64,000 nt of DNA from Promethearchaeota archaeon (GTDB taxonomy: Archaea; Asgardarchaeota; Lokiarchaeia; Sigyniarchaeales; SOKP01), in contig JBHLNZ010000007.1 in assembly GCA_048941015.1 (NCBI GenBank), positions 17,731 through 81,730 of the forward strand. Direction: 5' to 3'. The translations under genes and the position numbers were made by a program. This document shows positions 26,848 to 63,019 of this stretch, piece after piece (positions within the stretch are counted from its first letter, which is position 1; every line of letters starts with the position of its first letter). Under the pieces are notes generated by a model. That model had not been told where the DNA came from. It ran no database searches and saw only the letters and a list, made by a program, of their open reading frames with translations.

Positions 26848-27378
26848 ATGAAAAATTCTGCAAAGGCTAAATTTAAGTCGAATAAAGAAGATATAAGTGG
26901 TTCAGAAACGGTATTGGAGTTAATTAGAGGAAAAACTCCTTGGATCTTTGGAAAATCGTTGAGAAAGCCTAAGATTATTTTTCCAAAATTAAAACTTCCT
27001 AAAATGGACATGCCAATGCCAGGAAGATCTATTTCTGTAATAGTAATCTATGTTATTTTATTTCTTCTCCAAATGGGAATCATTTATTTAATTTATACAC
27101 AACCTCCAGCATTAGGTGGAAACCCAAACACCAATGAACCGATGTTTTTATATCCAAGTATTCATGATTCTTTCATCATTGAGGGGATAGTAGCATCAAT
27201 TCTAATATTTTTATGTTCGACAGGTTTTGTTTTGTTATATCAAGCATCAAAATATGTTTATAATAAGAGTATAGCAGTTAGAATATTGGTTATTGGAATT
27301 ATATTTGTTTTAGTCACTTTCGCAGCATTACAGGCAATGATAACTATTAAACTTGGAGAAACACTTTTTAATGTCTAA
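26848..27378 (+). CDS. OSTC/DC2-like (OST3/OST6 family) oligosaccharyltransferase subunit
   Basis: PKLKLP..MP, GIIY...QPPALG, FIIEGIVAS...GF, three TM, terminal KL. Confidence 0.8.
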   Translation: MKNSAKAKFKSNKEDISGSETVLELIRGKTPWIFGKSLRKPKIIFPKLKLPKMDMPMPGRSISVIVIYVILFLLQMGIIYLIYTQPPALGGNPNTNEPMFLYPSIHDSFIIEGIVASILIFLCSTGFVLLYQASKYVYNKSIAVRILVIGIIFVLVTFAALQAMITIKLGETLFNV

Positions 27379-49601: not shown

Positions 49602-50543
49602 TCAGAATTGAATAGTTTGCAAAAATCCTATTATATTGTCAAAATAGAAAGAATATGTTAGAATCGCAAGTAAAATAGACCCTGCACTTATAATTCCTTT
49701 GTCAAGAAAAACTCGTTCGGGGTTGCGTGCAATTTTAGGTTTAGCTGAGGTTAAATACATGTATCTCATAATGATATAAAGAGAGATGGGGATAGTAAAA
49801 ACTGCAATATATTCATAAAGTTTGATGCTTTCAGGCATAAAGAGATTAAATTTAAAAATTAGATATAAGGAATATGTTATGAATAATGAACCAGAGATCA
49901 TTACATGAAATTGATCCAACAGCTTAAGAGAGTATTGATCATAGACCTTTTTATGCTGTACTGCTTTATCTTTTCCTAAAAGTTGCAGATCTGCTTTCCT
50001 TTTCGCGATACTCAAGAACATTGCCAACTCAAATATTGCTAGAAATAACCAAGCAGAGATATATTCTTCAATAATTATACAACCTGCTAAAGCTCTCCAT
50101 AAATATCCTGTTGATAAAACTAATATATCAATAAAAGCATGAAACTTAAAGAAATGGTTATATAATTGTCCTGTAACAATAATTAAAATTAGCATGTAAA
50201 ACAAATATAGATTTGGTATTAGAAATAAAAATAAAATAATCATAATTAATAAAAGAATTATCAATAATGATATCGCAAAAATGATTGAGATATCACCACT
50301 GGCTAAAGGTTTCTTTTTCAATTTTTCTGGATGTTTTTTATCATATTCAATATCTCTTAAATCATTTATTATATAATTGAAGGAAGAAGCTGAGCACAAC
50401 AAAATAAATCCAATTAATAAAGGTAAATAAAGTTTAAAATCAAATAATCTCTCACTGAAAAAAACTCCAACAAAAATTAAAACATTTTTGTAATATTGCC
50501 TTACCCTTAAAAGATATAAAAGGCTTCTAATTTTTCTCAGCAT
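49602..50543 (-). CDS. UbiA-family prenyltransferase, decaprenyl-phosphate phosphoribosyltransferase-like
   Basis: LRVRQYYKN, YIINDLRDIEYDKKHPEK..KPLASG, RALAG, KRKAD. Confidence 0.85.
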   Translation of the reverse strand: MLRKIRSLLYLLRVRQYYKNVLIFVGVFFSERLFDFKLYLPLLIGFILLCSASSFNYIINDLRDIEYDKKHPEKLKKKPLASGDISIIFAISLLIILLLIMIILFLFLIPNLYLFYMLILIIVTGQLYNHFFKFHAFIDILVLSTGYLWRALAGCIIIEEYISAWLFLAIFELAMFLSIAKRKADLQLLGKDKAVQHKKVYDQYSLKLLDQFHVMISGSLFITYSLYLIFKFNLFMPESIKLYEYIAVFTIPISLYIIMRYMYLTSAKPKIARNPERVFLDKGIISAGSILLAILTYSFYFDNIIGFLQTIQF

Positions 50544-50570
50544 AATAAATACTTAATAAGATCATTAAAG

Positions 50571-53108
50571 TTAAACTTTATTAAGGTAAAATATTTTTTC
50601 TGGTTTGAATTTTCTTAATATTCTATACCCTAACTTACTGATTAAACTTGTTTCAGATTTTCTTTGTATGATTGCTGTATTGAAATCAAAAGATACCAGC
50701 TCTAATGACTTATAACTAATTTCTAATTTTTTACCGAAAATATTTTCTATTGAAATGACAATTTCGTTATTATTATGCACTAATTCTGATTTGTTTGCAT
50801 TCATATTTTTAGATCTGATGTCTTGAATATAACCAATTTCAAGATTATTAACGGGTTTTTTCAAAAATAGGAATGTACGTAATTTTTTCTTTTTTAACCA
50901 GTGAATAATATTTAATTCAGATTCTCTAAAAATTTTATTTTTAGTTATTGAGAAGTAAATATTTTTAGGACGAATTATTATATCTTTGAATTTTAATATG
51001 TAATTACTATTCTCTTTTGGGTTCAGTAGTTCAATTACAGACTCATTTAAATTATCGCTGATTTTAACATTGATACATATATAAATCTCTAGTCTACCTT
51101 TCACTTTTAGAAATATCTCATTATTAACGTACTCTTTTACAGTATCTATGGAATTTGATAATTTTGTCTTTCTAATTCGCTTAAAAATTAATTTTTTTTT
51201 ATTATCAAGAAAAATGAGTTTACCTTCTGTATTATCATTGAATAGTTCTATATCTTTCAGGATTAGAGGATTATCTTTTTTGAAAAAATATTTCTTGTTT
51301 AAACTTATTGGATATCTATTAAAAAGTGAAGAATTAAGCACTTTTTCATTTTTATTTTTAGTATCAAATATTAAAAATTGGTCAATATCACAAATGTCGT
51401 CACTATATTGGATTTCTTCAAACTTTCCTATTATTAATTCATCTGTAATTTTATTACGAAAAAGATAATCTTTATTTAAATCAAATTGGAAAAGTTCATC
51501 CCTTCTTAGAGTTTTCATTAATGTAGAAATATTATTAATATTAAAATATTCTTTAAATTTAGTGTTTGCAATTTGTTTGAACAAATTACGCGCATTTTCG
51601 AATTTCTTCGCATACTTTTTTTGAACTGATCTTCTTAGGCAAAAAAAAGGTAATAAAGCTTCTTTAGTAGGTTTTAATTTATCATCTAGAATTGCTGCAA
51701 CTCTGTGATAACTTGGAGGATGCGAATTGATTATATTACCAATTAAAGAAGTTCTTGATGGTTTTATCATTGATAAGTAAATATATTCTGCTGTGTCTTT
51801 ATAATTAAGCAATTGATTATCTTTATTTATTTTCTCATTACATAAAAGCATAGTATTTAAACCAATTTCACGTCCTGAAGCATAAAAGCTTTCCAAATTA
51901 TAAAGAGCTTTCACGAGTTCATTTCCTAATCCAGCATTTTTAGCCCTTAAATCTGCTTTTCCTTCAAGAATTCTAACAAAAATAAAAATTAAGATATAGA
52001 TTCCAATATTTAAAAAAATAAAATAAACTAAAGGAATTTTAGGATTACCAAAAGTATAATCATAATATGTTGCGGGAATTCCTAGAAACATTCTTATCAG
52101 TAAATCTAGTGAGGTTATAAAAGTTAAAATTAGCGTATGTTTTCCTTTTGTATGAGATAATTCATGAGCTATTATCCCTTTTAGCTCTTCGTCGGGTATC
52201 TCGCTAATATTTTCAGCAATAATTGCTATTCTTTTATCAAAAAAAGAACCATAAGCCATAGCGTTCAATATAGGATATTTTCCGTAGCCAATTTTGACCT
52301 TACCTCTTATACCAATTAGTTCTTTAATTTCAGATACTAATTTTAATAATTTTTTATCTTTAACTCGTTTAATGCCTAATAATTTATCCAAAATTGGACC
52401 AGATATGAAATATATAACCCAGTTGGTAAATATTAAAATTATATAGATGTTTAATAACAATTCTAATAAATTAAGACTTAAAATATCAGTTTGATTAAAA
52501 TTGTAAAAATTTATTGGAGTATATTGATTTAAAAATACTACTGCTATCCAAGCTATTATATACAGAAAGAGAGTTAAATATTCTGGTGATAAAAATCTCC
52601 AAACAATAATATATTTCCTGCCAAATAATATAAATCCTAAACCCAGTATTATCCAGAAGGAAAAAGCAAAGGAGGTATTTAATACAAGAGGATTCCTTAA
52701 ATAATTTGAAATTATTCCAGATATAAAGATTACATTATATGTTATTAGTGAGATTATTAATAATTTGTTAATTACTTCATATTCCTTTAATTCTATTATA
52801 GCAAACCACATGTAAATCGAAAAAGCACCCATTATTGATGTTAATAAATCTTTAGAAAAAAATAAGATGAGAAAGAAAAAGAAGAATATTGCGACAAAAT
52901 CACTTAATTCGCTCCGTTTACCGTTTTTAGCCCAACGATAAAATTCTTCTATTGAAAAAATATAAAGTAGACATGTGATTAAAAATGTCCAATCTAGAAT
53001 AATCTCGAATATATTATTTGAAAAAAACAAAACCAACCAAAAAAAAATCCCTAATAATGAAATGATTAAAAACAAGAAAAAAAGGAAGTATCTTTTGAAT
53101 GTATTCAA
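50571..53108 (-). CDS. large M48 (HtpX/Ste24-like) membrane zinc metalloprotease
   Basis: LNAMAYG, GIIAHELSH, EGKAD, SHPP; many N-terminal TMs and a long C-terminal soluble region. Confidence 0.85.
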   Translation of the reverse strand: MNTFKRYFLFFLFLIISLLGIFFWLVLFFSNNIFEIILDWTFLITCLLYIFSIEEFYRWAKNGKRSELSDFVAIFFFFFLILFFSKDLLTSIMGAFSIYMWFAIIELKEYEVINKLLIISLITYNVIFISGIISNYLRNPLVLNTSFAFSFWIILGLGFILFGRKYIIVWRFLSPEYLTLFLYIIAWIAVVFLNQYTPINFYNFNQTDILSLNLLELLLNIYIILIFTNWVIYFISGPILDKLLGIKRVKDKKLLKLVSEIKELIGIRGKVKIGYGKYPILNAMAYGSFFDKRIAIIAENISEIPDEELKGIIAHELSHTKGKHTLILTFITSLDLLIRMFLGIPATYYDYTFGNPKIPLVYFIFLNIGIYILIFIFVRILEGKADLRAKNAGLGNELVKALYNLESFYASGREIGLNTMLLCNEKINKDNQLLNYKDTAEYIYLSMIKPSRTSLIGNIINSHPPSYHRVAAILDDKLKPTKEALLPFFCLRRSVQKKYAKKFENARNLFKQIANTKFKEYFNINNISTLMKTLRRDELFQFDLNKDYLFRNKITDELIIGKFEEIQYSDDICDIDQFLIFDTKNKNEKVLNSSLFNRYPISLNKKYFFKKDNPLILKDIELFNDNTEGKLIFLDNKKKLIFKRIRKTKLSNSIDTVKEYVNNEIFLKVKGRLEIYICINVKISDNLNESVIELLNPKENSNYILKFKDIIIRPKNIYFSITKNKIFRESELNIIHWLKKKKLRTFLFLKKPVNNLEIGYIQDIRSKNMNANKSELVHNNNEIVISIENIFGKKLEISYKSLELVSFDFNTAIIQRKSETSLISKLGYRILRKFKPEKIFYLNKV

Positions 53109-53157
53109 TTAAAAAACCATTTTATTCCAATTTTATTAATTAAATAGATAAAAATAA

Positions 53158-53259
53158 TAGCCCGGCACGGATTTTCGATAAGTAAGTTATCTTACAAATA
53201 TTCGAACCGTGGTCACGGGGTTCAAGGCCCCATATGCTTGGCCGCTACACCACCGGGCT
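53158..53259 (-). tRNA. tRNA-Gln (anticodon UUG) with 29-nt intron at 59/60
   Basis: Acceptor AGCCCGG/CCGGGCT (A1-U72), D-arm GTGTAGCGGCCAAGCAT, anticodon arm TGGGG-CCTTGAA-CCCCG, T-arm CACGG-TTCGAA^T-CCGTG, discriminator A; 73 nt after splicing, CCA not encoded. Confidence 0.92.
53172..53200 (-). other. bulge-helix-bulge tRNA intron
   Basis: TATTTGTAAGATAACTTACTTATCGAAAA; central helix TTCG/CGAA flanked by two AAT bulges, internal GTAAG/CTTAC hairpin. Confidence 0.88.
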
Positions 53260-53284
53260 ATAGTTATACTTTCAGTAATATTCA

Positions 53285-53292
53285 TATTTAAA
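53285..53292 (-). promoter_or_regulatory. candidate TATA box for tRNA-Gln
   Basis: TTTAAATA 26-33 nt upstream of the mature 5' end, overlapping the trm112 stop codon; AT-rich background limits specificity. Confidence 0.4.
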
Positions 53293-53911
53293 TATTAAAA
53301 GGCTTTAAATCTTGGTTAATAAATTTGTCATCTATTAAATGTTTATTGTTTTTTAAAAATTCCACGTCTTCCCTTTCATTTCTATATTCATCTGGAAGCA
53401 TTTGTGGGATAGTATCAATAATAGGATACCATCGATTACATGTTGTACAAAAGAGAATGCCTGACCTTATTTCTGTCTCCATCTTAATTTTATTAAGAAA
53501 ATAAATATCGGGTAATATATTTTCAAAATAATTTACATTTTGTGATTCTATAGCTTTTGTAATATTTTCTTTGATATTTGATGTAATTATTGTAAAACAT
53601 TTTTTAATTAAGTTATCAACCGCATCAAGATTTATGTTTTTTATCTCATTAATACTAGTTACTATATGTTTTAAATATGAGTTAATCGGTTTCCTTTCGA
53701 GAATAATGTTATCCCTAACAAGAATTTGATCTCCTTCTTTAATTATATCAATTATTTTTTCTTCTTTAATGGAATCTATTTCTTTTCTTTCATATATATT
53801 TAAGATTTTTTGAAAATGGTCTAATTCAGTTTCAAAAGAAAAGATATATAATTTTAAAGGGAAATGTTTGTCGATCGGGCATGCCAAAATATCAAATAAC
53901 CAAGGTTTCAT
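53288..53911 (-). CDS. trm112: Trm112-family methyltransferase activator with long central insertion
   Basis: LFDILACPIDKHFPL ... GILFCTTCNRWYPIIDTIPQMLPDE. Confidence 0.85.
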   Translation of the reverse strand: MKPWLFDILACPIDKHFPLKLYIFSFETELDHFQKILNIYERKEIDSIKEEKIIDIIKEGDQILVRDNIILERKPINSYLKHIVTSINEIKNINLDAVDNLIKKCFTIITSNIKENITKAIESQNVNYFENILPDIYFLNKIKMETEIRSGILFCTTCNRWYPIIDTIPQMLPDEYRNEREDVEFLKNNKHLIDDKFINQDLKPFNI

Positions 53912-53930
53912 GATATTAATAAAAAATAGA

Positions 53931-55811
53931 TTATAATAAATAACTTCTTAATTGTTGGATATATTTATCAATAGTTCTATCAATTTTTTTTCTTCTATTA
54001 AAGAAATCGTTTGAGAGTTTCTGATATGCAGCTTTTGAGGGTAATTTACCTCTCTTATATCTACTTTCTAAAAGACTTAAGCTATCATTTATACTTGTTC
54101 GCTCGGCGTCTAATACATCCAATTTCTTTATAATACCCCCAAAAACTTCACTTGTTTGGTTTAAAGTTTGTTTAAATGGAATAATTTCTTGTTTAATTTG
54201 CTCTATCTTCGAAATATTTTTACTAATAATATTCTTTAATTGCTTTTTAGCCACCTTTTTATGTTTTGCATCTTCCTCAGTCTTTCGAATTTCAAGTATC
54301 AAAGCATTCATTTCTTCATATAAATAGCAAAATTCTCTGATTTCGTTAACTGGGATTGACTCTTTTTTAAAGATAGTTGGCCCTTCAATTTTTCTTCTTG
54401 TTTTTGTAATGATAATATAAACAGCTGAGATTATTGATATGATTAACATTATTGTTAATGGTCTTAAGAGTAAATTAAATAAATCTACTGAAAAAGTAAG
54501 CTGTAATTCATAATTTTCGGTGGGAATAACATAGTTAGATTCATATACTATTATTTTAGCATCTTGTGACTCTTCAATTGCATTTGGTGGATTTGAGTAA
54601 AAACTTACCCTGTTACAACCTTCAATTATGATTTTTGTTACTTGATTTTTTCCTAAATAGTCATATTTAGTTGTAAAAATATCCATTTGAATTGAATCTT
54701 GAAACCAATTTGTTGAGGAATATTTTTCAAATGGTAAATAATATTCAACAATGAACCTAAATTTTGATCCAGGGGTTAGTAAAGCGCGATTATCTGTTAA
54801 TTTTATCGATAATTGTTGATAATTTGGATCATCATCGTATTGGATCAATGTTGCTCCGGATAGTTGGCCAAGTTCATCATACACATCTACATTTTTTGCA
54901 TCTTCTGGAACTCTAAGAAAGAAATATTCAATATTAATTACTCCATCGTTCTTAATTAAAAATTCTTCTTTAACTTTTATTACTCCCCATGGAGAAATAA
55001 TTATATCTCGATTGATTCCTTCCATATCCATGCGAGTAAATCGGATCCTATTCTGGGTTGTTGGATCCTCCTGATTATCCTGAAACGTTATTGTTATCTC
55101 CTTATGATCATCATCGATATTAGCAAGATATGGTTCTATAAAATTTATGCTAGGATCTCCTGAAATATCATATTGCACACCTATACCAGTATCAACTCCC
55201 ATTTCTCCAACTTTTTCAAATTCGACTTCTGTCGAATCTTCAGTCACGAAAAGAGCTTTTACAACACCTATTGATTTATATGGAAATATTGGAAATAGGT
55301 AGCCTGTAAAATTTATTACTTGTTCTGTTGCTTGTATTTCATAACTTACCTGGTTTTGATATGAATGGAAGAAATGAACGAGTCGCGTTTGTTGTGGTAA
55401 TAAAGGTGTATCAAAATAGATTGCAATCATTTCATAGTCATTCATTACAAAATACGACCTTTCAGTTATCAATGTGTTTTGTGTATCACCAGTTGCTTTG
55501 AAAAATAGAAGATCATCTGAATTTTTTAATGGAATTCCTATAAAAATAGAATTAATGGGGTTATTATTTTCATTTGAAACAGTAAAAGTATCTTCAAAAA
55601 TAACGAAGCCATACTTTAAAATATTGACATTTCGATCAGGGTCAATAATTATTATATTTTCTGTTCCTTCTAAACTGGCAGAAATTTTAGGAATTCTAAT
55701 GTTTTCATTGTTAAATTCGTTTAAATTTGTTGGAAATCTGAAAAATGACAAAATTATTAAGATTAACAAAAAACTTATAAGAAATAGAAGCAAATTTCTC
55801 TTTTTTATCAT
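53931..55811 (-). CDS. ribophorin I (OST1/RPN1)-like protein
   Basis: N-terminal signal/TM, two beta-rich luminal domains, RDIIISPWGVIKVKEEF.IKN.G, YDELG, single TM, cytoplasmic helical bundle. Confidence 0.8.
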   Translation of the reverse strand: MIKKRNLLLFLISFLLILIILSFFRFPTNLNEFNNENIRIPKISASLEGTENIIIIDPDRNVNILKYGFVIFEDTFTVSNENNNPINSIFIGIPLKNSDDLLFFKATGDTQNTLITERSYFVMNDYEMIAIYFDTPLLPQQTRLVHFFHSYQNQVSYEIQATEQVINFTGYLFPIFPYKSIGVVKALFVTEDSTEVEFEKVGEMGVDTGIGVQYDISGDPSINFIEPYLANIDDDHKEITITFQDNQEDPTTQNRIRFTRMDMEGINRDIIISPWGVIKVKEEFLIKNDGVINIEYFFLRVPEDAKNVDVYDELGQLSGATLIQYDDDPNYQQLSIKLTDNRALLTPGSKFRFIVEYYLPFEKYSSTNWFQDSIQMDIFTTKYDYLGKNQVTKIIIEGCNRVSFYSNPPNAIEESQDAKIIVYESNYVIPTENYELQLTFSVDLFNLLLRPLTIMLIISIISAVYIIITKTRRKIEGPTIFKKESIPVNEIREFCYLYEEMNALILEIRKTEEDAKHKKVAKKQLKNIISKNISKIEQIKQEIIPFKQTLNQTSEVFGGIIKKLDVLDAERTSINDSLSLLESRYKRGKLPSKAAYQKLSNDFFNRRKKIDRTIDKYIQQLRSYLL

Positions 55812-55958
55812 ATTTTTTACTATCTCATACGTAAATTATCTAAGAATAATTAAAACAATTAATAAAGATTTTTCAAATTTTTGATAATATTTCGAGATAA
55901 ACCTAAATATAAATGATAATTTAAATAATTATAAAATAAAAATTAAGAAGAGTCTATA

Positions 55959-56180
55959 ATGTCATCTAGACGAACACAATCAAGAAGGAAGAAAAGAAGA
56001 GGCGGTAATGCTCCAATGCCCCTAGGTGGAGCAGGATTAATGAGATTTTTTGAGGATAGTTCCATAGGAATAAAATTAGGTCCAATTAGTGCCATGATTA
56101 TCTCATTAGCATTGATTTTGATTGTGATTTTTGCCCATATAGGTATATTTGATTGGATCTTTACACCGGGAGCAGTATAA
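55959..56180 (+). CDS. preprotein translocase subunit Sec61-beta
   Basis: Basic N-terminus, AGLMRFFED...IKLGP + single TM ending in H. Confidence 0.92.
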   Translation: MSSRRTQSRRKKRRGGNAPMPLGGAGLMRFFEDSSIGIKLGPISAMIISLALILIVIFAHIGIFDWIFTPGAV

Positions 56181-56228
56181 CTTAATTATTTATTTTTTTA
56201 TTTAAACTTCAAACAGCTTTATTGCATA

Positions 56229-56543
56229 ATGAAGATATCTGAGTTTCAAGAATTAATAAAAGAAATTTATTTCCATCAAGATAAAGAAAGAGGGATTAAG
56301 GGTACTTTTATTTGGTTAGTAGAAGAAGTGGGAGAATTAGCACGGATTATTAAAAACCAAAGAATTGATATAAGAAAGGCATCTGAAGAAATTGCTGATA
56401 TTTATGCTTGGATTAATTCAATTGCTAACCTCTTAGAAATAGATATGGAATCAATTTTGAAAGATAAGTATCCGGATAAGTGTATCCGATGTGGTTTGAA
56501 ACCTTGCCAATGTGATTTACTGAGAGATAATAGAAAAATCTAA
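56229..56543 (+). CDS. MazG-like nucleotide pyrophosphohydrolase
   Basis: WLVEEVGELAR, EEIADIYAW, C-terminal CxxC..PCxC. Confidence 0.9.
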   Translation: MKISEFQELIKEIYFHQDKERGIKGTFIWLVEEVGELARIIKNQRIDIRKASEEIADIYAWINSIANLLEIDMESILKDKYPDKCIRCGLKPCQCDLLRDNRKI

Positions 56544-56749
56544 TATTAGATTATTAAAAGAAAACAATTATATTTAATTTTGGTATTCTATTATATTTTA
56601 AGGAAAATAGAATTAATTTTTCTTGTAAATATTCTTAAAAAGTAATCGAAAGATAGATACAGATAATAGAACATAATATTTAGTTTAAGTGAATATTAAT
56701 TAACTTAATATTTTTTACATAAATATCTTAGAATAAACTTATTATCGGA

Positions 56750-57499
56750 TTGAAATTGACAAAGGAAAAACAGAATTTTTCAGACATTCACTCTGAAGCA
56801 GAAGTTGATAAAAATGCATTTATTGATACCTTTACTATAATTGGAAAAGGAGTTAAAATAGAGAAAAATGTTTACATTTCAAGAGGTACAAAAATATATG
56901 GGAAAACTTACATTGATGAAGAGACATATATCGGTGAAAATTGTATTATTGGACATCCGCAAAGAAATTTGTTAGTTAGTATAATCAATAGCAAACAACA
57001 ATGTAGTAATCTAGAAAGCCCGCAAACAATAATAGGCAAGAAATGTATCATTAGGGCTGGTTCAATCATATATTCAGAAGTTATTATGGGGAACATTTGC
57101 CAAACGGGGCATAGTGTTTTGATAAGAGAGAAAACGAAGATTGGAAATAATACTTTAATCGGTACTAATACTGTTATTGATGGAAATGTATCGATTGGAT
57201 CTAATGTAAGTATTCAAACTGGAGTCTATATCCCATTATATTCGAATGTTGGAAATAATGTATTTATGGGACCCTATTGTAAATTAACAAATGATAAATA
57301 TATGATGCGTAAACCTTATGATTTGAAAGGTGTTAATATTGAAGATAATGTTTCTTTAGGTGCAAATTCGGTAATATTACCGGGGATAACTTTAAAAAAA
57401 GGGACAGTTGTGGGTGCTGGAGCCATAGTAACAAGAGATACAGATGAAAATGATGTAATTATAGGTAATTCTGGGAAATTTTTAAGAAAATTTAGCTAG
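56750..57499 (+). CDS. hexapeptide-repeat N-acetyltransferase (nucleotide-sugar, WbpD-like)
   Basis: Left-handed beta-helix repeats, TGHSVLIRE, TNDKY, GANSVILPG, GAGAIVTRD. Confidence 0.85.
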   Translation: MKLTKEKQNFSDIHSEAEVDKNAFIDTFTIIGKGVKIEKNVYISRGTKIYGKTYIDEETYIGENCIIGHPQRNLLVSIINSKQQCSNLESPQTIIGKKCIIRAGSIIYSEVIMGNICQTGHSVLIREKTKIGNNTLIGTNTVIDGNVSIGSNVSIQTGVYIPLYSNVGNNVFMGPYCKLTNDKYMMRKPYDLKGVNIEDNVSLGANSVILPGITLKKGTVVGAGAIVTRDTDENDVIIGNSGKFLRKFS

Positions 57500-57543
57500 A
57501 GAAGAATATAGAGAACAAAAAATAGGAAAAAGAAATATCTATT

Positions 57544-58647
57544 ATGAGTTTTTTTAAAAGAAGAATTTGGATTGACATTGAAGAACCTAAAACGGCAATA
57601 ATGTTCAATTCTCTTATCAAAAAGTTTCGCAATGAAGGAGCAAGTCTTCTTATAACAGCTAGAGATTACGATTCTACTTTTCAAATCTTAGAAGACTTAA
57701 ATATTGAATATATTCAAGTTGGAAAGCATGGAGGAGATAAACTTAAGGATAAATTAAAAACTTATATTGATCGATTAAGTGAATTGTATCCTTATGTTAT
57801 TAAATTCAAACCAGAATTCTTTTTGACCTTTTCATCTTTAGAAGGGGTTAGAATATCCTATGGATTAAATATACCATCTATCGGTTACAATGATGAGCCA
57901 AGAAACGTACCTGTCTGTAAATTATTATTCCCCTTCCTAGATCAAATAATAACACCAAAATGTGTACCGATTGAGTGGTATATGAAACTTCATGCAGATA
58001 AAGAAAAGTTGATAAGATATAATGGAATTGATGAAATAGGCTGGTTATCAGAATATAAACCTAATCCTAACATTCTTAAAAAGTATGATCTAGAAAAAGG
58101 AAAATTTGTTATTATTAGAAGTGAACCTAGTTTTGCGAGTTATTTCTTAAATACTCTTAAACCAGAAAAAACCCTAATCTCAGAATTCTTTCCTCTCATT
58201 TTCAAGGAGTTTCCTGATCTAAAATATTTAATCATTTTAAGAACAGATAAACAAGAAAATTATCTTAAGTCTATGTTAAAAAACTATATTAATAATCAAA
58301 ATGTAATAATTACTCAATTTTTACCAAATATGAGTGATTTTTGTTTCTATGCTTCGCTTGTTATAAGTGGAGGAGGGACAATTGTCCGCGAATCAAGTTT
58401 ATTAAATGTTCCTAGTATTGAGTTTTTTCCTGGAGAGACTGCACCACAAGAACACTTTTTAATGGATAATGGTTTTCCATTAGTTCATATAAAGCAAAGC
58501 GATGAAATCGGAAAAAAAGCGACCGAAATATTATCATTAAAACATAAACCAGAGAGGTTTTCTCTTTCCTTTAAAGAGAAAATTAAGAATTTCGAAAACC
58601 CTAATGATATATGCTACAAAATCATAGAAGAGAAACTAACAAGATAA
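57544..58647 (+). CDS. DUF354 family GT-B fold protein
   Basis: IWIDI, ITARDY, VGKHGG, YNGIDE, IRSEP, SGGGTIVRES. Confidence 0.85.
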   Translation: MSFFKRRIWIDIEEPKTAIMFNSLIKKFRNEGASLLITARDYDSTFQILEDLNIEYIQVGKHGGDKLKDKLKTYIDRLSELYPYVIKFKPEFFLTFSSLEGVRISYGLNIPSIGYNDEPRNVPVCKLLFPFLDQIITPKCVPIEWYMKLHADKEKLIRYNGIDEIGWLSEYKPNPNILKKYDLEKGKFVIIRSEPSFASYFLNTLKPEKTLISEFFPLIFKEFPDLKYLIILRTDKQENYLKSMLKNYINNQNVIITQFLPNMSDFCFYASLVISGGGTIVRESSLLNVPSIEFFPGETAPQEHFLMDNGFPLVHIKQSDEIGKKATEILSLKHKPERFSLSFKEKIKNFENPNDICYKIIEEKLTR

Positions 58648-58715
58648 ATTTTTTATTACAATTTTTTTTGATTCTGGACACTATTGATTCAGATTGAACT
58701 AAAAAATTGATAGTT

Positions 58716-60071
58716 TCACTTCTTTAATTTTTTGATTTGCGACCAAAAATATTTGATTGTTAAAAAATACCATATTATTAAAATTGGTGCTATTAATATA
58801 AGTGAAAATAGGATATTAGTTGGTATTCTTATAAATATTAAATCAATTTCCTCATAAAATAATTTCATTATTACTGAATCTATTAAGATTAATAATAAAA
58901 TAATTACAATTAGAAGAATTATCATTAAACTGATGATCCCCCTTATTCTTGGATAATAATATAACAAAATGGTTGTTGGAATTAAAAAAATAAATATAAA
59001 TAAATAAATGTAAAACAAATTAAGATTTCCTAAAGTCCATTGTGTAAGTAATATCGAAATTATTGAAAAGAATCCACAGATTATTGATATCACATAAAAA
59101 TTTTTAACTATATCAGGTTCTTTTAATGGTCCTTTCGCTAAGATTAATCGAGGTAAAGTTAATGCGGAAGTTCTTTTTTCAGAGGCTATTATTATATCAT
59201 TATCCAATAAAATGATATCACTTTTTTGATCTTGGATTTCACTACTTTCAAAAAAACCCTTTACAGAACTTATTACAAAAAAACTATTAAATATGTGAAT
59301 TAAGAGTGCACAAAAAACAGCAACCTCCATTGAACCTAATAAAGCAATGCAGGCAAAAATAGAACCCATACTTAATGTACCTATATCACCTGGAAAAATT
59401 TTAGCGGGAAATTTATTATAAATGAAAAAAGCTATAATTACTGCTATTGAAGTTGAAGTAATTAAAATAACAATATTTGAATTCCAAATTAAGCCACATA
59501 TAAAAAGAAAACAAAGAGCTATTAATGATGTACCTGAACCTTCTCCATTATAACCTTCTAACATATTCGAAGTGTTTGCAAAAACGGCAACAATTAAAGG
59601 AGCCGCTAAAGGGTAGATCATTGTCAATCTTGTAACTCCTAGAAAAGGTAAGGTAGGGGAATTGATACTTATGAAGCCTATATAATTAGCTAAAAAAATT
59701 GCAGTACCAGTTAATATTGTTAATACAATTTTATAAAATGATTTAAGTTTGATACGATCATCAATAAATCCGATTATTCCTGATATCAGTATTGTTAAAA
59801 AATATATTATAATCTCGTTATATACATTATGGAAAAAAAACATTAGTAGTAATGAAGTTACTGATATACCAATAACTATACTTAAACCTCCTGATTCTGG
59901 TACTTCAGGTCTAGAATTTTTATGAATATCATATCCAATATATCCTTTTTTTTTCATTAGCCTTATAATAAAGGGTATAGAAGTGAAAGTTACAAAGAAA
60001 CCTATAATAGAAATTATAATTAAACATAAAACTTCGAAAATCCCCCAATTGAACTCAGTTATAAAAATCAT
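58716..60071 (-). CDS. UDP-GlcNAc:dolichyl-phosphate GlcNAc-1-phosphotransferase (AglH/DPAGT1-like, MraY family)
   Basis: GYDIHK..PEVPESGG, GFIDD, NTSNMLEGYNG, YNKFPAKIFPGDIGT. Confidence 0.87.
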   Translation of the reverse strand: MIFITEFNWGIFEVLCLIIISIIGFFVTFTSIPFIIRLMKKKGYIGYDIHKNSRPEVPESGGLSIVIGISVTSLLLMFFFHNVYNEIIIYFLTILISGIIGFIDDRIKLKSFYKIVLTILTGTAIFLANYIGFISINSPTLPFLGVTRLTMIYPLAAPLIVAVFANTSNMLEGYNGEGSGTSLIALCFLFICGLIWNSNIVILITSTSIAVIIAFFIYNKFPAKIFPGDIGTLSMGSIFACIALLGSMEVAVFCALLIHIFNSFFVISSVKGFFESSEIQDQKSDIILLDNDIIIASEKRTSALTLPRLILAKGPLKEPDIVKNFYVISIICGFFSIISILLTQWTLGNLNLFYIYLFIFIFLIPTTILLYYYPRIRGIISLMIILLIVIILLLILIDSVIMKLFYEEIDLIFIRIPTNILFSLILIAPILIIWYFLTIKYFWSQIKKLKK

Positions 60072-60310
60072 TAAAATATCCTTTTTCTCATAATATATTG
60101 AATATTTAGAAATTTCATAATTAGAAAAAATTTATGAAAAATTTTAAATTAATTTTTAAAATTTCCTACAACTTATAAAAAATATAGATTAATATTTAGA
60201 AATAAATTAGTTAAAATTATTACTTAATTTATTTATAAGATTAACAACCAAATTATCATTATAAAATGGTTTAAGAAGTTAGAGAAATATAAGATCTATT
60301 GATATTTGTT

Positions 60311-61426
60311 TTACAATTTTTTAAATTGAAAATACAATTTTTCTAATTTATTTCCTATAATATCCCACCTATATTTCTGAATATAATTATGGGATTTGCT
60401 TATTAAACTTTCTCTTAGCTCTTTGTTCTTCAACAAATTAATTATTTCTTCTGCTAATAATTTTGAATTTTTTGGTGGAACAAATATAGCATTATCTTGC
60501 AAAATTTCTCGAAAAACCATAATAGAAGAGCAAATTACGGGAGTTCCACATGCTATTGCTTCTATTGATGTTAATCCAAAACCCTCAGATGCGTGAGAAT
60601 AGGTAATAAAAACGTCTCCCATTGAATAATAGAAAGCTAATTCTTCATCGGAAATAAAACCTACAAACCTTATATCCTTGTAAGAATTTTTCCATTGGTA
60701 ATAAGATTTTTCCATGGAATAATCTGGCAAACCTCCTATAACTAAATTTAGATTTGGTATTTCTGCTTTAGCTATTTGAAATGCTTTTATGATATATTCT
60801 ACTCCTTTATATGGAGCTATTCTTCCAATATAAAGAAGAACTGGTCCTTCAATATTTAGTTTATTTCTAAGTTTCATTGCTTCATTTGGATATGGTTTGA
60901 ATTTTTTATCAATTCCATTAAAAAAGTTAAATATTTTATTATTGTCAACTTGAGGAATAAAATATTTAAATTCTTTTTTAACAAATTCTGAAACAGTTGT
61001 TATATAAGTTGATCTCTTTGCTATATATCTCAATAATATCTTAGCTATTGGTATTTTATAAAAATTTGTTTCAAAATGACCTAAGTCATGAATTGTAGAG
61101 ATAAATTTTTTTACATTAGCTAAAATTATAGGAAATGTTCCTTTTGGTCCATTACCATGTATAATATCAAAATTCGATTTATTTTTAATTAAAAAAAGAG
61201 CTACTTTAAAATTGAATTGAGGAATCCACAAGAAACGTTTTCTTATTATATTTATTTGAATGATATTTGGATCCTTTAACTTTTTCTTCCATTTACCAGT
61301 TATAACAGTTACATTATGGCCTTTAGATCTCAGAAAATCATAATATTCTCTAAAAACTTGGGCTTCACCATCTTTATCGTCAGGTGGGAACTTTAATGAT
61401 ATAAGACAGATTTTTAATTTTTCCAT
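60311..61426 (-). CDS. glycosyltransferase family 4
   Basis: TIHD, NGID, GRIAPYKG, EGFGLTSIEAIACGTPV. Confidence 0.92.
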   Translation of the reverse strand: MEKLKICLISLKFPPDDKDGEAQVFREYYDFLRSKGHNVTVITGKWKKKLKDPNIIQINIIRKRFLWIPQFNFKVALFLIKNKSNFDIIHGNGPKGTFPIILANVKKFISTIHDLGHFETNFYKIPIAKILLRYIAKRSTYITTVSEFVKKEFKYFIPQVDNNKIFNFFNGIDKKFKPYPNEAMKLRNKLNIEGPVLLYIGRIAPYKGVEYIIKAFQIAKAEIPNLNLVIGGLPDYSMEKSYYQWKNSYKDIRFVGFISDEELAFYYSMGDVFITYSHASEGFGLTSIEAIACGTPVICSSIMVFREILQDNAIFVPPKNSKLLAEEIINLLKNKELRESLISKSHNYIQKYRWDIIGNKLEKLYFQFKKL

Positions 61427-62647: not shown

Positions 62648-63019
62648 GTGTCGGAAAATATCAGTGAACTCACTGATTTACTAAGAAAATTATCTGCGGT
62701 TAATTCTGACATAGAAGGATCAGCTATAGTTAGTGTACAAGGATTACCGATTTGTTCGGTACTAAGTAGAGATGTAAATGATGGTATCGTTTCAGCAATG
62801 TCTGCAGCGATTCAAAGCGTTTCAGAACGTGCTGTTGAAGAGCTTGATCGAGGCGAATTAAAACGTATTCTTATAGAAGGAGTTAATGGTATAATAATCT
62901 TGTCAAAAGCAGGAGAAAACGCAATATTATGCACACTCTGTCATGCTAATGCCAGTCTCGGCATGGTTTTTCTCAATATTCAAAGTGTATCTAATAGAAT
63001 TGCCGCTTTATTAGATTAA
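62648..63019 (+). CDS. roadblock/LC7 (MglB-like) protein
   Basis: IEGSAIVSVQGLPI, VSAMSAA, GELKRILIEG, ASLGMVF; GTG start after AGGAGG SD. Confidence 0.92.
   Translation: MSENISELTDLLRKLSAVNSDIEGSAIVSVQGLPICSVLSRDVNDGIVSAMSAAIQSVSERAVEELDRGELKRILIEGVNGIIILSKAGENAILCTLCHANASLGMVFLNIQSVSNRIAALLD

Follow-up and report, generated by a model that had tools for sequence, protein, structure and literature searches.

This work concerns OST1, an archaeal homologue of ribophorin I (RPN1) of the oligosaccharyltransferase (OST), and its gene neighbourhood in a stretch of 64,000 nucleotides, here called the window, which is part of contig C119 of a metagenome-assembled genome of a Loki-type Asgard archaeon (3.59 Mb, 95% complete, ~28% GC). 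We consider it probable that lokiarchaeial OST1, whose gene is divergent from that of Sec61-beta, stands in a conserved block that starts and decorates a lipid-linked glycan. The proteins, as well as the idea of an Asgard Sec61/OST/TRAP machine, are already known (PMC11417166, PMC10307638). The new part is modest: the OST1/Sec61-beta pairing is kept in three families of one archaeal order and was found in no other Asgard family sampled. The two genes and the region between them are arranged as follows:

53931-55811, minus strand: OST1/ribophorin I homologue, 626 amino acids (aa) (Pfam PF04597 Ribophorin_I, 43.5 bits, cut-off 25)
55812-55958, no strand: AT-rich divergent spacer of 147 nucleotides (nt) between the start codons of OST1 and Sec61-beta
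55959-56180, plus strand: Sec61-beta (SecG-type translocon subunit), 73 aa (Pfam PF03911, 50.7 bits, cut-off 27)

Both the head-to-head orientation and the gap of 147 nt had been given in a preliminary description of this DNA, made from the sequence alone, and they proved exact.

Extent and Origin of the Pairing

The pairing was followed in two overlapping samples. For the first, 40 relatives were searched with the OST1 protein, and the flanks were then screened for Sec61-beta. It was divergent from OST1 in all 34 loci with enough flank, which belong to families f1, f2, and f3 of the window's order, and across which OST1 identity drops to ~25%. The second sample consisted of 60 named loci, 55 of them with enough flank, and was restricted to Loki-type genomes by its query, a six-sequence alignment; here the two genes were divergent within 400 nt in 52 loci and at ~430 nt in two, and one locus was locally inverted. 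Among the paired loci are those of Promethearchaeum syntrophicum MK-D1, Candidatus Lokiarchaeum ossiferum B35, and Candidatus Harpocratesius repetitus. The adjacency is beyond chance: all relatives of the three families that could be checked have it. Record names are unreliable for this Loki-type clade: close relatives of the window's genus have been deposited as Hermodarchaeota, Hodarchaeota, Odinarchaeota, and even as a Nanopelagicaceae bacterium (L133, L144, L149, L152, L162, L167).

The unpaired genomes do have Sec61-beta; where the assembly is a single contig, the distance to OST1 is between 18 kb and 1.4 Mb. In families f4 and f5, it lies on a separate contig, with the exception of the single-contig f4 genome G033, where ~2.8 Mb separate the two genes. 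A quick maximum-likelihood tree of OST1 places f1-f3 in one clade (approximate likelihood-ratio test support 83), sister to f4 (97) and then to f5 (95), a topology that fits a single origin of the pairing in the ancestor of f1-f3.

The genes involved are also found in other combinations. Sec61-beta is linked to a MazG-like gene in f4, f5, and f23, where OST1 sits elsewhere, and in f4 also to a DUF354 gene; in several families the MazG-like protein goes with Sec61-beta whether OST1 is nearby or not. At least nine Asgard families (f1-f4, f11, f17, f20, f23, and f26) have a Trm112-like gene in the vicinity of OST1, so that its linkage with OST1 is wider among Asgard families than that of Sec61-beta. 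The lokiarchaeial arrangement looks like a fusion of these two older pairs, Sec61-beta with the MazG-like gene and OST1 with the Trm112-like gene.

Identity of the Paired Proteins

The open reading frame at 53931-55811 encodes a true RPN1/OST1 homologue, as confirmed by both sequence and fold. The protein carries ISPWGVIKVKEE. Its AlphaFold2 (AF2) model, for which 50 Asgard homologues served as input, reached a mean pLDDT of 88 and consists of a helix at residues 2-23 (signal or anchor), strands at 53-442, a transmembrane (TM) helix at 444-471, and four helices at 488-625. This corresponds to a type I topology, with extracytoplasmic beta-sandwich domains, a single TM segment, and a cytosolic four-helix bundle. 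In a Foldseek comparison with the PDB, the top match was human RPN1 in the Sec61-TRAP-OST-A translocon (8B6L_O, E 5.8e-33); further top matches were the OST-A chain 6S7O_E (E 5.3e-30) and the OST-B chain 6S7T_E, and the yeast Ost1 chains 8AGB_E, 7OCI_A, and 6EZN_A matched at TMt ~0.7. With RPN1/Ost1 chains ranking first, the earlier naming of this gene as ribophorin I-like was borne out. Residues 475-626 match the ribosome-binding domain of MK-D1 OST1 (8WHN) in sequence (phmmer, E 6.1e-33), and superposition of 8WHN on this tail gave TMt 0.89, a root-mean-square deviation of 2.0 Å, and 42% identity over 142 aligned residues (Foldseek).

The OST1 homologue of families f11 and f30 has a length of ~990-1230 aa and carries an FKBP-type prolyl isomerase and a Big_7 immunoglobulin domain N-terminal of the ectodomain. 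A signal peptide stands in front of the extension, which is rich in N-x-S/T sequons, and a foldase is thereby joined to an OST accessory subunit on the outward-facing side of the membrane. The fusion loci are:

L059, 1663-4626, plus strand: FKBP-OST1 fusion
L058, 2968-6666, minus strand: FKBP-OST1 fusion
L054, 2974-6075, minus strand: FKBP-OST1 fusion

The Sec61-beta protein has a basic N-terminus and a C-terminal TM anchor with the hydrophobic GPISAMIISLALILIVIFAHIGIF near the C-terminus, a tail-anchored topology. Its best sequence match in the PDB is mammalian Sec61-beta (E 4e-5), and its score against NCBIfam PRK01253 is 47.9 bits, under the cut-off of 55.

Carilo et al. (2024) listed Sec61-alpha/beta/gamma, OST1, OST3/6, STT3, and TRAP subunits for MK-D1, solved the structure of the OST1 tail (8WHN), and demonstrated that this tail pulls down human ribosomes in vitro (PMC11417166). 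Eme et al. (2023) described an enlarged repertoire of translocon-linked proteins for the Asgard archaea (PMC10307638). A multi-subunit, co-translational OST in an archaeon, which the preliminary description had put forward, is therefore already in print, together with experiments (PMC11417166, PMC10307638). Gene order and pairing are not mentioned in the texts of these two papers, and the OST1 neighbourhood patterns described here (Sec61-beta, the glycan-pathway gene for the first transfer step, acetyltransferase, and secY) were not found in the literature texts searched. Another paper states that Ost1 is absent from MK-D1 (PMC11284389). This conflicts with 8WHN and with the MK-D1 locus, and it is corrected here: the MK-D1 chromosome (NZ_CP042905.2) encodes OST1 at ~1.600-1.603 Mb, beside Sec61-beta, and the tail of the encoded protein is identical to 8WHN bar one residue.

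Glycan-Pathway Genes and Other Members of the Block

Around the divergent pair, the following genes were found in the window; the last one lies outside the block:

53288-53911, minus strand: Trm112-like protein, 207 aa (Pfam Trm112p, 35.8 bits)
56229-56543, plus strand: small MazG-like protein of nucleoside triphosphate pyrophosphohydrolase fold, downstream of Sec61-beta (Pfam MazG, 28.8 bits)
56750-57499, plus strand: hexapeptide-repeat sugar N-acetyltransferase of the NeuD/PglB/VioB type (Pfam Hexapep, 96.8 bits)
57544-58647, plus strand: DUF354 protein of GT-B fold (Pfam PF04007, 149 bits)
58716-60071, minus strand: AglH/DPAGT1-type polyprenol-phosphate N-acetylhexosamine (HexNAc)-1-P transferase, abbreviated GPT (Pfam PF00953, 95.6 bits)
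60311-61426, minus strand: GT4-family glycosyltransferase (Pfam Glycos_transf_1, 126.5 bits, and Glyco_transf_4, 60 bits)
26848-27378, plus strand: OST3/OST6-type membrane protein, 176 aa, without thioredoxin domain (Pfam OST3_OST6, 35.5 bits, cut-off 27)

Pfam scans and open reading frame coordinates recovered every gene named in the preliminary description, including the four glycan genes that it had placed within 6 kb (GPT, GT4, DUF354, and sugar acetyltransferase). The enzyme at 58716-60071 is a GPT of the AglH/DPAGT1 type, with its sugar and lipid substrates predicted from sequence. No other PF00953 match occurs in the 95%-complete genome, and the enzyme is not MraY, as its score against the MraY equivalogs of NCBIfam is 38 bits and the cut-off is 192.

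The DUF354 protein had been described as a GT-B protein, and the fold part of this assignment stood: its AF2 model (pLDDT 92) has a GT-B fold. The protein is nearer to UDP-GlcNAc 2-epimerases than to glycosyltransferases, since these epimerases make up all of the top 30 Foldseek matches (E ~2e-13, TM-score 0.65-0.71). Profile scans of Pfam and NCBIfam give DUF354 only or no family, and a literature search on DUF354 returned only unrelated DUF354x matches. Most Asgard archaea are reported to be without Alg13/14 (PMC8993221), and DUF354 was considered as the missing second-step transferase of this type; the candidate was rejected, as the model matches UDP-GlcNAc 2-epimerases first and not MurG or Alg13-14. 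The adjacent acetyltransferase scores 97.9 bits against NCBIfam TIGR03570, below the cut-off. Together, DUF354 and this NeuD/PglB/VioB-type neighbour suggest a role in nucleotide-sugar tailoring, rather than in lipid-linked transfer, judging from the modelled fold.

The Trm112-like gene follows OST1 on the same strand after a gap of 19 nt. Its product combines a split zinc-ribbon with a helical insert of ~125 aa that recalls the eukaryotic form; it is the only PF03966 match in the genome and scores 53.6 bits against NCBIfam Trm112_arch, below the cut-off. The block is bordered on one side by a UbiA-type prenyltransferase and an 845-aa M48 (Ste24/HtpX-like) peptidase (49602-53108, minus strand) and on the other by a Roadblock/LC7 protein (62648-63019, plus strand), for which the identity between species reaches 95% even where that of their OST1 is only ~50%.

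OST1 Neighbourhoods in Other Asgard Archaea

Families f4, f5, f11, f23, and f30 have a PF00953 GPT gene divergent from OST1, and the f4 copy is 38% identical to the window GPT. A homologue of the hexapeptide acetyltransferase stands directly upstream of OST1 in f14, f16, f18, f20, f28, and f29. Most close relatives of the window genome carry GPT after the Trm112-like gene, hence within 3 kb of OST1, and our earlier view of the window GPT as a local insertion was revised accordingly, since most relatives have it on this other side. Throughout family f1, the block retains the GT4 gene. MK-D1 and Harpocratesius have the block reduced to a four-gene core, and in genus g5 the Trm112-like gene has been relocated, with Sec61-beta still beside OST1. 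The agl genes of MK-D1 are reported as not clustered near aglB (PMC11284389). Across Asgard archaea, it is OST1, rather than aglB, that anchors the glycan-pathway neighbourhood.

A second translocon gene adjoins OST1 in the distant family f26, where secY is head-to-head with it in all three loci with enough flank:

L117, 2084-6515: secY/OST1 pair
L118, 2029-6135: secY/OST1 pair
L122, 2037-6169: secY/OST1 pair

The secY gene that faces OST1 in f26 is not preceded by ribosomal-protein genes. The OST1/secY pair is a translocon link independent of the pairing with Sec61-beta.

The Intergenic Spacers

The spacer between OST1 and Sec61-beta is 136-176 nt long in 32 of the 34 relatives. A core of ~80 nt (about 55833-55912) is conserved across 24 species of the genus, and outside the genus the other families share only a short T-rich/TCA motif. 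The spacer presumably holds the promoters of both genes.

Another spacer, located past the Trm112-like gene (window 53109-53287; L134-L179), has a higher GC content (0.35 against 0.16) and shows strong conservation among 26 relatives, so that an RNA gene is suspected there. For the region 52900-56800, Rfam and ARAGORN returned no RNA family or tRNA, and a tRNA with a non-canonical intron, proposed for 53109-53287 at the first reading, found no match there with either program. The spacer between the Trm112-like gene and GPT was tried as the first control for spacer conservation and was unsuitable, being GC-richer and probably holding an RNA gene.

Interpretation of the Arrangement

According to the interpretation that we favour, OST1 would assemble at the SecYE-beta channel with AglB/STT3 and OST3/6, both encoded outside the locus, and its cytosolic four-helix bundle would hold the ribosome, an activity demonstrated in vitro for the orthologue from MK-D1. 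GPT would make polyprenol-PP-HexNAc, and the neighbouring enzymes might extend it or supply sugars, while two back-to-back promoters in the ~150-nt spacer could keep the expression of OST1 and Sec61-beta in step. The arrangement itself is circumstantial support for OST1 acting between the glycan supply and the protein channel.

Several observations weigh against this interpretation. The conservation of the adjacency, which the preliminary description had proposed as a check, is complete in f1-f3 and does not extend further: none of the four loci of the sister family f4 has the OST1/Sec61-beta pairing, and no Sec61-beta was found near OST1 in ~45 loci from 27 further Asgard families. The other parts of the putative machine are dispersed. 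STT3 is present in the genome on another contig (C109), the OST3/6-type gene is 27 kb from the locus, although inside the window, SecY is encoded on the contig of the locus at a distance of 68 kb, SecE is on C115, and a weak Ost5-like match lies on C58; no Ost4 was found in the genome. None of the loci screened had STT3, OST3/6, or SecE beside OST1, in searches with one- or two-sequence queries of low sensitivity. The OST3/6-type protein at 26848-27378, outside the locus, is a candidate part of the machine; its match to OST3_OST6 is confined to the TM part, where DC2 and OST3/6 are indistinguishable. A control divergent spacer between M24 peptidase and Roadblock genes is as well conserved in these genomes as the OST1/Sec61-beta spacer (mean pairwise identity 0.61 against 0.56). 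Spacer conservation is thus no special evidence for shared control, and the idea that it is exceptional and indicates a shared promoter was rejected. In mammalian OST-A/Sec61 structures, RPN1 contacts the ribosome rather than Sec61-beta, so the adjacency of the genes need not mirror a direct contact of their products.

The most serious alternative is a frozen accident, in which one ancestral rearrangement joined the Sec61-beta/MazG-like and OST1/Trm112-like pairs, each gene keeping its own promoter and no functional coupling being involved. The single origin seen in the OST1 tree, the separate existence of both pairs in other lineages, the absence of the combined arrangement from all other Asgard families sampled, and the ordinary conservation of the spacer are all in its favour. 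However, the pairing has outlasted the rest of the block, as in the four-gene core left in MK-D1 and Harpocratesius, has been kept in g5 although the Trm112-like gene has moved away, and has survived the divergence of OST1 to ~25% identity; moreover, OST1 is independently head-to-head with secY in f26. A rough approximation of our own, not a computed statistic, gives ~1 in 1000 for two independent placements of OST1 beside channel genes, counting one of three channel genes in some thirty families, with the reservation that related genomes are not independent. This estimate is the main argument against pure accident, an explanation that we hold to be a real possibility, though short of an even chance. 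One could go further and propose that selection ties the expression of OST1 to both the channel and the glycan supply, as OST1 is twice independently head-to-head with a translocon gene and elsewhere faces GPT; we offer this as a tentative and rather doubtful extension.

Two other explanations differ from ours in what the locus would encode. Archaeal OST1 might not be an OST subunit but an accessory of the SecYE-beta channel that docks the ribosome or holds substrates independently of AglB. In the loci screened, it pairs with Sec61-beta or SecY and never with STT3, two families have an extracytoplasmic FKBP foldase domain fused to it, and ribosome binding is its sole experimentally shown activity. 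We nevertheless find this improbable, as linkage with GPT and sugar-modifying genes recurs across many families, the full-length fold matches RPN1/Ost1 in solved OST complexes, and STT3 and OST3/6 co-occur in the genome. At the opposite end, the preliminary description had read the locus as a co-regulated unit encoding a whole OST-A-like, translocon-docked glycosylation machine. OST1, Sec61-beta, and lipid-linked-oligosaccharide genes do lie within 8 kb, and the OST3/6-type gene is inside the same window. With the catalytic subunit and SecE on other contigs, SecY and OST3/6 at the distances given above, the block's genes divided between the two strands and among four or more transcription units, and the arrangement specific to one lineage, the locus does not encode the whole machine, and this fuller reading is very unlikely.

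If selection does tie OST1 expression to both the channel and the glycan supply, a supercomplex of ribosome, SecYE-beta, and OST would already operate in the cell membrane of Asgard archaea. Its missing adaptor subunits might then be sought through gene order, with the long Trm112-like protein as one candidate. Asgard homologues of OST1, Sec61, and TRAP bear on the origin of the translocon of the endoplasmic reticulum (ER), and the Lokiarchaeales have fixed the Sec61-beta/OST1 divergent pair. As the cultured MK-D1 and L. ossiferum carry the same pair, co-expression and complex formation are directly testable in culture.

Comparison with Known Systems

The closest characterised counterpart is OST1 of MK-D1 (WP_147663064.1; 8WHN; PMC11417166), which shares its architecture with the window protein and has the same gene context, with Sec61-beta head-to-head and the Trm112-like gene following. 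The window genome comes from another family of the same order, and full-length OST1 identity between the two is only ~27%. Unlike the MK-D1 neighbourhood, which has lost them, the window block retains GPT, DUF354, the acetyltransferase, and GT4.

Compared with eukaryotic RPN1/Ost1 (8B6L, 6S7O; yeast 6EZN, 8AGB), the window protein shows a full-length fold match over ~620 columns (E 6e-33) at a sequence identity of ~15%. Its topology is that of RPN1, including the cytosolic four-helix bundle, which yeast Ost1 is without. The archaeal protein resides in the cell membrane and not in the ER, and for it complex formation is a prediction. No partner of the RPN2, OST48, or DAD1 type was found, although no search was aimed at them.

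In the aglB-centred agl clusters of Euryarchaeota, glycan genes are likewise clustered with a component of the transfer step; those clusters are centred on aglB, whereas the window cluster is centred on the accessory subunit OST1. Finally, OST1, OST3/6, STT3, and Sec61 subunits are present here as in the Asgard set of translocon-linked eukaryotic signature proteins (Zaremba-Niedzwiedzka 2017), as far as that set is summarised in PMC10307638. In that summary, the earlier studies give the presence or absence of these proteins, while the analysis of the window gives the order of their genes.

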